A DNA stretch of 64,000 nucleotides from NCBI RefSeq assembly GCF_003018115.1, contig NZ_CP027457.1. The stretch is one strand, 5' to 3'. Numbering within the stretch: position 1 is the first letter of the stretch; each line of letters begins with the position of its first letter. The translations under genes and the position numbers were made by a program. Of the stretch, positions 453 to 50,218 are shown in pieces. The stretch comes from Escherichia coli. GTDB taxonomy: Bacteria > Pseudomonadota > Gammaproteobacteria > Enterobacterales > Enterobacteriaceae. The notes beneath the pieces are model-generated. The model worked only from the letters and a program-made list of their open reading frames with translations, was not told where the DNA came from and searched no databases.

Positions 453-794
453 TTACGCGACCTTTTTTGCACGCTCTTCACGGCGTGCCAAATATTCAGC
501 CACTGTTTCAATCCGTCCCAATTCTTCCTGGGTGCGCATGTTGTTTTCAACTTCCCAAAGATCAACTGCCGCCTGGAGGTTTAGCCAAAAATCGACTGTG
601 GTATCAAAAACTTTCGCCAGACGGAATGCCATTTCAGTGGTGAGTTTACGATTATTATTGATCAGTGTACTGACGCTATTACGATGAACATGCAGCAACT
701 CTACTAACTCATTGATTTTCAAAGCGATCTGTTCCGGATATTCATAGAGAAGAATATCTCCGGGTGTCGTCGGTTTTCTTGTTGCCTGTTTCAT
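453..794 (-). CDS. ybaQ: XRE/HigA-like helix-turn-helix transcriptional regulator YbaQ (113 aa)
   Basis: ORF 453..848 (-); start set to the internal Met (MKQATRKPTTPGD...) matching the known 113-aa protein; ATG at 794. Confidence 0.9.
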   Translation of the reverse strand: MKQATRKPTTPGDILLYEYPEQIALKINELVELLHVHRNSVSTLINNNRKLTTEMAFRLAKVFDTTVDFWLNLQAAVDLWEVENNMRTQEELGRIETVAEYLARREERAKKVA

Positions 795-931
795 AGTTTT
801 TAACTGTTGCTTCCCTGTGAATAGCGATACAAGAACATACTGAATCATACAAACACATTAAACAAGTCCCCAACTCCATTTGCGCCATCCCTCCCCGCGC
901 GCTAGCATGATATTTCACAAAGGGAGGTCGT

Positions 932-1726
932 ATGGATCTGTTGTACCGGGTAAAAACGCTTTGGGCCGCGCTGCGCGGTAATCATTACACCTGGCCTGCC
1001 ATCGATATCACCCTCCCCGGCAATCGCCATTTTCATCTGATTGGCAGTATTCATATGGGTAGCCACGATATGGCTCCCCTGCCCACCCGTTTGCTCAAAA
1101 AGCTCAAAAACGCCGATGCGCTGATCGTCGAGGCGGATGTTTCCACCAGCGATACGCCTTTTGCTAATTTGCCTACTTGCGAGGCGCTGGAAGAGCGCAT
1201 TAGCGAGGAGCAACTCCAAAATCTGCAGCACATTAGCCAGGAGATGGGCATTTCTCCGTCGCTCTTTTCTACTCAACCGCTGTGGCAAATCGCGATGGTT
1301 CTTCAGGCGACGCAGGCACAAAAACTGGGGCTGCGGGCAGAATACGGTATCGATTACCAGCTATTGCAGGCGGCGAAGCAACAACATAAACCCGTGATTG
1401 AACTGGAAGGGGCTGAAAACCAGATTGCCATGTTGCTCCAGCTCCCTGACAAAGGACTGGCGCTGCTGGACGATACGCTGACCCACTGGCATACCAACGC
1501 ACGGTTGCTGCAACAAATGATGAGCTGGTGGCTGAATGCGCCGCCGCAAAATAATGAAATAACGCTGCCCAATACGTTCAGTCAGTCGCTGTACGATGTG
1601 CTGATGCATCAGCGAAATCTCGCCTGGCGGGATAAATTACGCGCCATGCCGCCGGGGCGATATGTGGTCGCGGTCGGTGCACTACACCTGTATGGAGAAG
1701 GGAATTTACCGCAAATGTTGCGCTAA
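932..1726 (+). CDS. ybaP: TraB/GumN family protein YbaP (264 aa)
   Basis: ORF-track entry 932..1726, 264 aa; recognised N-terminus MDLLYRVKTLWAALRG; synteny. Confidence 0.93.
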   Translation: MDLLYRVKTLWAALRGNHYTWPAIDITLPGNRHFHLIGSIHMGSHDMAPLPTRLLKKLKNADALIVEADVSTSDTPFANLPTCEALEERISEEQLQNLQHISQEMGISPSLFSTQPLWQIAMVLQATQAQKLGLRAEYGIDYQLLQAAKQQHKPVIELEGAENQIAMLLQLPDKGLALLDDTLTHWHTNARLLQQMMSWWLNAPPQNNEITLPNTFSQSLYDVLMHQRNLAWRDKLRAMPPGRYVVAVGALHLYGEGNLPQMLR

Positions 1727-1808
1727 AAAAATGGCCAATATCGCTATTGGCCCGTCAAAGAGGAATTTCATTTTTTTATTATTATGCCGTCACTTTAAGC
1801 GACGGTGT
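1725..1808 (-). ncRNA. chiX: ChiX (MicM/SroB) small regulatory RNA
   Basis: Reverse complement of 1725-1808 reads acaccgtcgcttaaagtgacggcataataataaaaaaatgaaattcctctttgacgggccaatagcgatattggccattttttt, matching the recalled ChiX sequence including its terminator hairpin and U-tail; it lies in the ybaP-ybaK spacer as in K-12. Confidence 0.85.
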
Positions 1809-1914
1809 AACTCGATTGTCGCTCAATCTCACCATCCTGCCAATACTCTTAGGCAAGATGACTCTTTTTTTTGGACCGCCATCAGGCGTATGCTTGCTTC
1901 GTTTTTTTGTTTAA

Positions 1915-2409
<495 letters not shown>

Positions 2410-7484: not shown

Positions 7485-7568
7485 GTAGGCATGATAAGAC
7501 GCGCCAGCGTCGCATCAGGCATCGAGAGCCAAATGCCAGATGCGGCGTGAACGCCTTATCTGGCCTAC
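7485..7568. repeat. REP element pair (two inverted palindromic units) between ybaL and gsk
   Basis: gtaggcatgataagacgcgccagcgtcgcatcaggcat and gccagatgcggcgtgaacgccttatctggcctac are typical REP palindromes. Confidence 0.8.
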
Positions 7569-14884: not shown

Positions 14885-16816
14885 TCAAATGGGGCGGATA
14901 CTTTCTTCATCCAGCTCCGCATCGAAAAACCGACGCAGGGTCTGAATATTATTATCCGCAATAATGGACTCGCGCGCCTGCGCAAGTTTTTCTTCGTATA
15001 TCGCCTGACGCCACTCCAGCGGCGTACGCACCGCGGGATTATCATCTTCAACGATAGTCAGTTCAACCGTTGAACCTTTTAACATGCTCAACGCTTCAGC
15101 CAGTTTTTGCTGTGCACCGCGGTTGTTCAAATGCCGCTGAGAGGAGCGCAAATGCAGACATACTGCGTTATCACTCTCCTCTTTCCAGGCATTTAAGGCC
15201 ACCTGTTCGACCAGTTTTGGTAGCGAAAGTTGACTCACCTGAGCCGCCCACGGGTCGCGCTCAATGGCTTCTGCCGCCAGCTTCGCCGCCAGTTCCGGCG
15301 TTTTTTCATGTTCCAGCGCTTTTTTCAGCGCCTTCGGTGTGGCGACCACTTCTTTTTGCTGCATCACTGGAGTGGTCGCCTTCCAGCGATACGCTTCTTT
15401 TTTAGCTGGCGCTTTTTCCAGCGCCGATGGCACCGGACGCGCCTGAACGCGATCCGTGACCGAAGCCAGTCTTTCCAGCGCAGCGTTATTCACCGGCCGC
15501 GCGCGGGTAGCGGCTGCCGGTTCACTCTTTTTTGCTTTGGTTGCTCCCTGCACGCGCTGCAACTGCTGGCGCGCCGCCAGCACCTGGCTGGTGGTTTCTG
15601 AGAGCGGTACAGTCGGTGCCTGCTGCGCCGCTGATTGCGGTTGCGGCGGCACCTGGGTTGGCGTCATTACTGCCGTTGGCGCGACGGGTGCAAAGGACTG
15701 GCGTGGCACTTCTGGCTCAGGCAGCGGCATACGCGGATGGAACGCCAGCGCGCGCAGCAGCGTCATCTCAACGCCCATGCGGCGGTCCGGCGCATACGGT
15801 AATTCTTTGCGACCAATCAACAGCGTCTGATAGTAAAGCTGAATATCCGTCGGCGGTATGGTGCGCGCCAGTTCACGCATCCGCAGCTCGATGGCGGCCA
15901 TGTCGTTGCCAAGTGCAGCAGGCGAAAGTTGTACCATCGCAATACGATGCAACAGGCCGAGCATTTCCACCAGCAACGCTTCCCACTCGATACCACGGGC
16001 AGCGGCTTCATTAATCAGCGCCATTACGCGCTCGCCGTTGGCCTCGACCATCGCTTCAACCAGCGACAGCGCCTGATCGTCGTCAAGCGTACCCAGCATC
16101 GCACTGACCGCCTGGGTTGAAACCTGGCCGTCACCGCTGGCAATCGCCTGGTCGGTCAGACTTAAGGCATCTCGCAGGCTGCCTTCAGCGGCGCGCGCCA
16201 GCAATTGCAGCGCCCGCGGCTCGTGAGCGATATGTTCTTCATTGAGGATGTGCTCAAGTTGATGACGAATTTGCTCGACATCCAGCGCCTTGAGATGAAA
16301 TTGCAAACAGCGCGACAAAATCGTCACCGGCAATTTCTGTGGATCGGTCGTCGCCAGCAGAAACTTAACGTGCTCCGGCGGCTCTTCAAGAGTTTTTAAC
16401 AGTGCGTTAAAGCTGTGACGCGACAGCATATGCACTTCGTCGATGAGATAAACTTTGAAACGACCACGCGCCGGAGCGTACTGGACGTTATCCAGCAGGT
16501 CGCGGGTATCTTCAACTTTGGTGCGCGAGGCGGCGTCGATTTCAATCAGATCGACAAAGCGCCCCTGCTCGATTTCACGACAATTATCGCACACGCCGCA
16601 CGGCGTCGCGGTAATGCCGGTTTCGCAGTTTAGCCCCTTCGCCAGCAGTCGGGCGATAGAGGTTTTTCCGACGCCACGGGTACCGGAAAAAAGATAAGCA
16701 TGATGAATACGCCCTAACGACAAGCCGTTCGCCAGTGCGGTCAGCACATGTTCCTGGCCGACGACGTCAGCAAAGGTTTGTGGGCGCCATTTTCGGGCTA
16801 AGACCTGATAACTCAT
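14885..16816 (-). CDS. dnaX: DNA polymerase III tau subunit (643 aa); the gamma subunit is made from the same start by a programmed -1 frameshift
   Basis: ORF 14885..16816 (-); AAA+ Walker A motif GTRGVGKTS; recognised as DnaX. Confidence 0.97.
   Translation of the reverse strand: MSYQVLARKWRPQTFADVVGQEHVLTALANGLSLGRIHHAYLFSGTRGVGKTSIARLLAKGLNCETGITATPCGVCDNCREIEQGRFVDLIEIDAASRTKVEDTRDLLDNVQYAPARGRFKVYLIDEVHMLSRHSFNALLKTLEEPPEHVKFLLATTDPQKLPVTILSRCLQFHLKALDVEQIRHQLEHILNEEHIAHEPRALQLLARAAEGSLRDALSLTDQAIASGDGQVSTQAVSAMLGTLDDDQALSLVEAMVEANGERVMALINEAAARGIEWEALLVEMLGLLHRIAMVQLSPAALGNDMAAIELRMRELARTIPPTDIQLYYQTLLIGRKELPYAPDRRMGVEMTLLRALAFHPRMPLPEPEVPRQSFAPVAPTAVMTPTQVPPQPQSAAQQAPTVPLSETTSQVLAARQQLQRVQGATKAKKSEPAAATRARPVNNAALERLASVTDRVQARPVPSALEKAPAKKEAYRWKATTPVMQQKEVVATPKALKKALEHEKTPELAAKLAAEAIERDPWAAQVSQLSLPKLVEQVALNAWKEESDNAVCLHLRSSQRHLNNRGAQQKLAEALSMLKGSTVELTIVEDDNPAVRTPLEWRQAIYEEKLAQARESIIADNNIQTLRRFFDAELDEESIRPI
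15491..15533 (-). other. dnaX programmed -1 ribosomal frameshift cassette: slippery heptamer A AAA AAG (15527-15533), -1 frame UGA stop (15522-15524) and downstream stimulatory stem-loop (about 15491-15520)
   Basis: The minus strand reads gcaaccaaagcAAAAAAGagtgaaCCGGCAGCCGCtacccGCGCGCGGCCGGtg; the heptamer sits in the zero frame at tau codons 429-430 (..ATKAKKSEP..); after the slip the reading is GAG then UGA. Confidence 0.85.
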
Positions 16817-32345: not shown

Positions 32346-32459
32346 GGGTGGGGGCCCTGCCAGCTACATCCCGGCACACGCGTCATCTGCCTTGGCTGCT
32401 TCCTTCCGGACCTGACCTGGTAAACAGAGTAGCGTTGCGGGAGAACCAACAGAGCCCCC
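32346..32459 (-). ncRNA. ffs: 4.5S RNA, the signal recognition particle RNA
   Basis: The reverse complement reads GGGGGCUCUGUUGGUUCUCCCGCAACGCUACUCUGUUUACCAGGUCAGGUCCGGAAGGAAGCAGCCAAGGCAGAUGACGCGUGUGCCGGGAUGUAGCUGGCAGGGCCCCCACCC, the E. coli 4.5S RNA with its conserved domain IV. Confidence 0.95.
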
Positions 32460-50031: not shown

Positions 50032-50114
50032 AGAGCTCTCTCTTAGTTTAATTTCCGCCAGGTAATCAGATGACACGACTGTGCTTCACGCCATCTATTA
50101 ACATGTACGTCAGT

Positions 50115-50149
50115 ATATGGGGATGTTTCCCCCACATTCAACGCCGAGA
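50115..50149 (-). promoter_or_regulatory. sigma32 heat-shock promoter of lon
   Basis: The minus strand reads tctcggcgTTGAAtgtgggggaaacatCCCCATATa, matching the sigma32 -35 and CCCCATnT -10, about 85 nt upstream of the lon ATG. Confidence 0.7.
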
Positions 50150-50151
50150 AT

Positions 50152-50187
50152 AGAGGAAAAATTAAAGGGGAGATAAAATCCCCCCTT
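50152..50187 (-). terminator. Terminator downstream of clpX
   Basis: On the minus strand, hairpin aggggggattttatctcccct is followed by ttaatttttcc. Confidence 0.65.
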
Positions 50188-50218
50188 TTTGGTTAACTAA
50201 TTGTATGGGAATGGTTAA

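Follow-up and report, generated by a model that had tools for sequence, protein, structure and literature searches.

The chiX small RNA gene between ybaP and ybaK of Escherichia coli and its two-nucleotide overlap with the ybaP stop codon

The 84 nt at positions 1725-1808 on the minus strand of the window (the whole stretch of 64,000 nt from E. coli contig NZ_CP027457.1 that was analysed) are almost certainly the E. coli chiX gene, encoding an Hfq-dependent sRNA with its own promoter, an intrinsic terminator and a chiP-silencing seed, and located between ybaP and ybaK. In an Rfam scan of all 64 kb, the family RF00368 (sroB, that is ChiX/MicM/RybC) matched at 1725-1808 on the minus strand with 82.1 bits (gathering score 44; E = 1.8e-10), and the model was covered end to end (positions 1-83 of 83), as is expected of a family member. 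A permissive Rfam rescan of 1500-2100 gave no match besides RF00368. The full-length match shows that the coordinates, strand and length given for ChiX by the earlier note, which had been read from the letters alone, were exact. In addition, the 84 nt of chiX and about 130 nt upstream are 100% identical to E. coli K-12 MG1655, where RefSeq annotates the ncRNA chiX (b4585, small regulatory RNA ChiX) at 507204-507287 (+); the window carries the same locus in reversed orientation. A single base difference from MG1655 is found inside ybaP, 16 nt past the ChiX 3' end, and looks synonymous. The MG1655 gene thus has the same 84-nt sequence, promoter, 5' hairpin, A-rich stretch, seed, terminator, flanks and overlap as the gene described here. 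The features of the locus are collected in Table 1.

Table 1. Features at and around chiX, in window coordinates.
Feature	Position	Strand	Basis or remark
chiX (ChiX/MicM/SroB/RybC sRNA, 84 nt)	1725..1808	-	start 1808, 3' end 1725; Rfam, MG1655 identity, Term-seq
chiX -35-like hexamer TTGGCA	1838..1843	-	consensus scan; MG1655 identical
chiX -10-like hexamer GACAAT	1815..1820	-	positions -12 to -7 relative to 1808
ChiX 5' stem-loop (nt 4-22)	1787..1805	-	fold; sequence differs among genera
A-rich stretch AUAAUAAUAAAAAAAUGAAAU (nt 24-44)	1765..1785	-	sequence; putative Hfq distal-face site
ChiX seed (nt 45-58, UCCUCUUUGACGGG)	1751..1764	-	exact complement to chiP and chbBC
ChiX intrinsic terminator hairpin GGCCAAUAGCGAUAUUGGCC	1733..1752	-	terminator scan and fold
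ChiX 3' U-tract (7 U)	1725..1731	-	last two U (1726, 1725) within ybaP TAA
ChiX terminator read-through zone, antisense in ybaP	1544..1724	-	MG1655 507288-507468 (+), coordinates transferred
ybaP (TraB/GumN family, 264 aa)	932..1726	+	TAA 1724-1726; ORF list; RefSeq
ybaP-ybaK spacer, 203 nt	1727..1929	+	antisense of chiX within; one weak terminator-like site
ybaK (Cys-tRNA(Pro) deacylase), downstream of ybaP, same strand	1930..2409	+	ORF list
ybaQ	453-848	-	ORF list
ushA	after ybaK	-	ORF list, first 2.6 kb

The 84-nt sequence occurs in 5422 of 5426 complete E. coli genomes, once in each, and chiX was found at 99% identity or more in 5011 of the complete genomes. It is nevertheless missing from the PGAP-annotated E. 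coli records examined. This is an annotation gap and not an absence of the gene; because PGAP omits chiX, the region looks like empty spacer in those records. The identification made in the earlier note is borne out by the Rfam score, the 100% identity to b4585, the intact seed and the ybaK-chiX-ybaP synteny, and we found nothing that speaks against it. One might suppose that the locus resembles ChiX by chance or is a degenerate copy without function. No point in favour of this view was found, and it is contradicted by a full-length match with the above E value over the whole window, by a sequence and promoter 100% identical to those of the functional K-12 gene, and by a single-copy locus at a conserved genomic position. 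We consider it refuted by the Rfam match, the MG1655 identity and the synteny, its probability being negligible. Since sequence and promoter are identical to those of MG1655, we infer that ChiX is expressed in this strain. Public annotation and data already contain chiX, with its known function and neighbouring genes, as well as the 2-nt overlap with ybaP described below.

A consensus scan of 800-2600 found one promoter-like site, the sigma-70-like TTGGCA-17 nt-GACAAT at 1843-1815 of the minus strand, which is the same in MG1655. From this sigma-70-type promoter, transcription of chiX would start at 1808 and end at the intrinsic terminator, with the hairpin followed by the U-tract. Folding of the ChiX RNA gave a minimum free energy of -24.1 kcal/mol (z = -3.9) and predicted two hairpins, one at the 5' end (nt 4-22) and that of the terminator (nt 57-76), behind which come seven U; the A-rich nt 24-44 and the seed lie between the two hairpins. 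The 8-bp stem followed by 7 U has the form of a Rho-independent terminator with a U tail. Among the matches listed in the cross-species search described below, all six predicted pairs of the terminator stem are preserved in every one of the 107 distinct homologues, and A-U to G-C compensatory exchanges occur at two of the stem positions. Meanwhile, the 5' hairpin is weakly conserved in the alignment of these matches. ChiX has been treated as a Class II sRNA, which uses both the proximal and the distal face of Hfq (PMC12262471). The A-rich stretch is read here as a putative A-R-N-type distal-face site of such an sRNA, and together with the U tail it would provide the expected Hfq contacts.

The seed is intact. 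In the Shine-Dalgarno region of chiP, the sequence CGUCAAAGAGGA, which ends 8 nt before the AUG, is exactly complementary over 12 nt to ChiX nt 45-56, and in the chbB-chbC spacer CCCGUCAAAGAG is exactly complementary over 12 nt to nt 47-58; the longest complement to the seed among 1000 random 131-nt pieces of the window was 11 nt. The divergence in the seed region that the earlier note had named as evidence against ChiX is therefore not present. ChiX nt 38-44 also pair with AUUUCAU of chbBC, as judged by eye on the printed sequences. The exact-complement search with its random control was used because folding of whole-molecule duplexes between ChiX and the chiP or chbBC leaders gave unrealistic long structures.

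As summarised by Adams et al. (2021, PMC7815308), chiP was validated as a target of ChiX through compensatory mutations, and ChiX is removed by two sponges, the chbBC spacer and ChiZ. In Salmonella, ChiX is an 84-nt RNA, one of the three most abundant Hfq-bound sRNAs, and is flanked by ybaK and ybaP in the orientation <- -> <- (PMC2515195). The single-stranded seed (nt 45-58) pairs with the Shine-Dalgarno region of chiP, which keeps the chitoporin mRNA silent, and the same seed pairs with the chbB-chbC spacer and with ChiZ, which comes from the chiP 5' UTR; these decoys remove ChiX when chitosugars are present. The description of ChiX in the earlier note as a silencer of chitoporin and chitobiose mRNAs is right for chitoporin (chiP) but imprecise for chitobiose (chb). 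Calling it a silencer of chitobiose mRNAs is loose wording, because the chb mRNA is mainly a decoy that promotes ChiX decay. The expression of ChiX, its Hfq dependence, the silencing of chiP, the decoys and the exact 3' end are taken from the literature and not from this analysis.

The gene lies at the expected genomic position, in the ybaP-ybaK spacer, on the opposite strand and convergent with ybaP. YbaP is a TraB/PrgY/GumN protein (Pfam PF01963, E = 7e-44), and the intact ybaK ORF encodes 159 aa with a tRNA-editing domain by Pfam. In E. coli F9792, which matches the window at 100% over 1400-2100, ybaK is a frameshifted pseudogene according to RefSeq. The last two U of ChiX and the AA of the ybaP TAA are the same base pairs; with the TAA at 1724-1726 and the ChiX 3' end at 1725, the 3' ends of the two genes have 2 nt in common. 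The MG1655 RefSeq record places ybaP at 507286-508080 (-), so that a 2-bp overlap with chiX is annotated there, and the layout is ordinary in the sense that it is already annotated. By Term-seq, the ChiX 3' end was mapped to MG1655 507287 (= window 1725) in three growth conditions, with the class 'primary (chiX), antisense (ybaP)' and scores from 445,279 to 955,394 (Adams et al. 2021, PMC7815308). The overlap thus has experimental backing besides its annotation. RefSeq annotation and Term-seq likewise show that the ChiX terminator and the ybaP 3' end share DNA, as the earlier note had stated. The earlier note had ChiX begin within 2 nt of the ybaP TAA; the closeness is real, but it is the 3' end of ChiX, and not its beginning, that sits there. 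It had also called ChiX antisense to ybaP. The genes are indeed convergent, and the antisense region comprises merely 2 nt of coding sequence, but all of any ybaP 3' UTR.

Several other elements were seen in the window. A REP array at 93-431, just past the end of ybaQ and towards copA, is built of a 101-bp unit that is repeated in tandem 3.4 times at 98% identity; every copy contains a REP-type palindrome, and the array has Rfam matches to naRNA4/CssrE at 148-225, 249-326 and 350-427 on both strands. 'Orphan' 3' ends were reported by Term-seq in the equivalent REP region of MG1655 (Adams et al. 2021, PMC7815308). The further Rfam matches above cut-off are the sraA sRNA at 50103-50198 (+), the dnaX programmed-frameshift element at 15488-15552 (-), the SRP (4.5S, ffs) RNA at 32355-32451 (-) and another REP/naRNA4 unit at 7488-7565 (-), all of which are expected in this part of the E. 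coli chromosome.

An exact-pattern scan with one genome per species returned at least 120 loci; the conservation of nt 41-60 among them is partly imposed by the search pattern. In nearly all of the matches listed, chiX has ybaK upstream and ybaP facing it in convergent orientation, a synteny that holds in about 110 species, and the literature on the ybaK-chiX-ybaP gene order agrees (PMC4355480, PMC2515195). One pattern match listed was outside the Enterobacterales, in a Candidatus Lindowbacteria metagenome-assembled genome; it has no terminator, ybaP or ybaK nearby, appears to be a chance 19-base match and was rejected. Among the matches listed, the ybaP stop is a TAA consisting of the two final T of the ChiX U-tract followed by the next A in 87 of the 115 assessable enterobacterial species. 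A 1-nt overlap through TGA was seen in four species and a 17-nt overlap in another four, and in the remaining matches the two genes are 3-230 nt apart; these matches are from Pantoea, Erwinia, Buttiauxella, Rouxiella and Hafnia and from single loci in several further genera. In four Phytobacter/Kosakonia-like genomes (L043, L050, L068 and L096), the U-tract of ChiX is followed by G, so that no TAA arises and the ybaP frame extends 17 nt into the ChiX terminator hairpin. One locus (L028) has an apparent overlap of 87 nt between ybaP and chiX by frame extension, in which assembly or frame errors are possible.

Among the species that have the 2-nt overlap, the YbaP tail after the conserved GxLH motif has 11, 12, 13, 14 or 15 residues. 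Since the tail varies in length while these species share the overlap, the YbaP frame simply remains open up to the terminator. Selection for a compact layout might account for the kept overlap, and a neutral ratchet is just as conceivable, because no spacer remains to take insertions. The position of chiX between ybaP and ybaK is not universal, as the arrangement in Proteus shows. In Proteus cibi and Proteus faecis, 34 nt separate ybaP from its neighbour ybaK, and chiX is found about 1.5 kb away, where it faces copA in convergent orientation at a distance of roughly 120 nt; a different location of chiX in Proteus has also been stated previously (PMC4355480). This arrangement suggests that ybaP and ybaK may ancestrally have been one unit.

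RNA from both strands of the locus is present in public supplementary tables, as Rho-limited ChiX read-through and as Hfq-associated ybaP-sense fragments. On the chiX strand, a Rho termination region was mapped at MG1655 507468 (+), approximately window 1544, with a Rho score of 3.7 and P = 4e-10 (Adams et al. 2021, supplementary file 2, PMC7815308), suggesting that some polymerases pass the ChiX terminator and continue about 180 nt into ybaP until Rho stops them. In addition, 'ybaP.AS' fragments at 507307-507377 (+) were found to pair with ArcZ in a 2025 RIL-seq study (odds ratio 51). On the ybaP strand, the ybaP-sense fragment of an Hfq-CLASH hybrid in a published supplementary table corresponds to window 1692-1761 (+) and spans the last 11 codons of ybaP, the stop and the hairpin, as far as the anti-seed. 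Meanwhile, a RIL-seq feature named 'ybaP.EST3UTR' (MG1655 507215-507289 (-), that is window 1723-1797 (+)) was recovered as RNA1 in chimeras with ArcZ (540 fragments, one library, odds ratio 2.6) and with SdsR; chiX itself, which lies on the plus strand of MG1655, was recovered as RNA2 with about 5.3 million fragments, and the authors 'considered ybaP.EST3UTR to be ChiX' (McQuail et al. 2023). The feature may represent a genuine ybaP 3' UTR associated with Hfq, or else a strand artefact arising from the enormous abundance of ChiX. The signal of the ybaP strand amounts to about 0.2% of that of ChiX, so that an artefact is possible, for instance copying of ChiX cDNA by reverse transcriptase. Duplex energies of ArcZ and SdsR with ChiX and with anti-ChiX gave z from -0.3 to -2.7 and were dominated by spurious pairing of A-runs with U-runs.

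The earlier note had proposed that convergent transcription could affect the formation of the ybaP 3' end. This is plausible and fits with the missing conserved terminator on the ybaP strand and with the RNA from both strands. How ybaP transcripts end may be explained in different ways. The ChiX terminator might be bidirectional and also end ybaP transcripts just past the stop, so that one common terminator serves both genes and the ybaP mRNA carries about 30 nt of anti-ChiX. The hairpin is nearly palindromic and begins 6 nt past the ybaP stop, and known bidirectional intrinsic terminators likewise place one hairpin between convergent units, with a stop codon near the stem. A preprint (bioRxiv 10.1101/2022.10.23.513370) describes bidirectional terminators between convergent genes as common in E. 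coli and proposes that head-on polymerase collisions aid bidirectional termination. However, the chiX hairpin is asymmetric in comparison with such terminators, its A-tract/U-tract serving the ChiX direction alone. Past the hairpin, the plus strand reads CGTCAAAGAGG and has no U-tract such as a bidirectional terminator would have; the ybaP strand reads CGUCAAAGAGG there (CGUCAAAGAGGAAUUUC), and the first U run comes 17 nt later. The terminator scan called a terminator at the ChiX hairpin on the minus strand and predicted none there on the plus strand. Moreover, the Hfq-CLASH fragment passes through the hairpin to the anti-seed, the RIL-seq reads of the ybaP strand start as far away as window 1797, and the Term-seq tables of Adams et al. 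(2021) list no 3' end on the ybaP strand. The bidirectional terminator was rejected on sequence grounds, the ybaP strand having neither a U-tract nor a predicted terminator, and we regard it as very improbable.

Alternatively, ybaP and ybaK may form one transcription unit that runs antisense through chiX and its promoter, with a regulatory role for the overlap. The abundant ChiX might pair with the ybaP 3' UTR or the spacer, to which it is perfectly complementary, and alter the processing, stability or read-through of a ybaP-ybaK mRNA; the ybaP transcript might serve as an anti-ChiX RNA encoded in cis; or polymerases arriving from ybaP might be blocked where chiX is densely transcribed. In favour of a common unit, a terminator-like site between the ybaP stop and the ybaK start, on their strand, was found in just 21 of 110 species among the matches listed and was weak in all of them. 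In the window, the sole candidate on the ybaP strand (1883-1896, 5 pairs) is weak and not conserved, no conserved intrinsic terminator was found between chiX and ybaK on the ybaK strand, and the scan of 800-2600 found no plus-strand promoter-like site upstream of ybaK. The ybaP mRNA may thus run on to ybaK, and since its strand is without a conserved terminator, every complete ybaP mRNA would have to extend antisense into chiX. The adjacent genes of Proteus are as expected of an ancestral operon, the ybaP-sense anti-ChiX RNA appears in both Hfq-CLASH and Hfq RIL-seq, and the 2-nt overlap is kept in most of the species assessed. On the other hand, a ChiX-ybaP interaction is not discussed in the searched literature naming both genes, and no experiment there ties ChiX to ybaP or ybaK levels. 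The base mean of ybaP is about 45-67 against 8269 for ChiX, values that come from separate studies, strains and data sets; with ybaP expressed so far below ChiX, sponging of ChiX by the ybaP mRNA would be negligible. The RIL-seq signal of the ybaP strand is low, with a small odds ratio, and open to the strand artefact described above, and the neutral account, with no spacer left for insertions, suffices for the kept overlap. We therefore regard a regulatory overlap in a common ybaP-ybaK unit as rather unlikely. The more specific proposal that chiX sits inside an ancestral ybaP-ybaK operon, and that ChiX or its convergent transcription sets the 3' end of that mRNA, its stability or its read-through into ybaK, is decidedly unlikely; we place the same low confidence in the proposal that such a cis-antisense role is visible in the Hfq interactome tables but was relabelled there as ChiX.

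The layout of chiX and ybaP is not unique, since ArcZ and arcB of E. coli K-12 are similar: the sRNA ArcZ, too, depends on Hfq, and its terminator shares DNA with the 3' end of a protein gene that converges on it. The arcZ gene lies at 3350577-3350697 (+) and the RefSeq annotation of arcB runs from 3350689 (-), an overlap of 9 nt against 2 for chiX and ybaP. Unlike ChiX, ArcZ is processed to a 3' fragment, and arcB has no same-strand gene across the sRNA gene, whereas ybaP has ybaK. A transcript of the ybaP strand also resembles the chbBC and ChiZ decoys in that it contains CCCGUCAAAGAGGAAUUUCAU, with the ChiX-binding motif of chiP and chbBC. However, the anti-ChiX RNA of the ybaP strand is cis-encoded, fully complementary and weakly expressed, while the chbBC and ChiZ decoys are partially complementary and experimentally shown.

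As such, the finding is a textbook sRNA at its annotated place and matters little. What is new but minor is the cross-species conservation of the TAA in the U-tract, the ybaP strand without a conserved terminator and the RNA of both strands in the tables; the conserved stop-in-U-tract layout and the ybaP-strand interactome reads are modest leads, not discoveries. Interactome labels such as 'ybaP.EST3UTR' and 'ybaP.AS' can obscure the strand from which reads come. If the overlap were regulatory, ChiX would be a dual sRNA, acting both in trans and in cis, and the locus would offer a function-linked handle on the poorly understood ybaP and ybaK.
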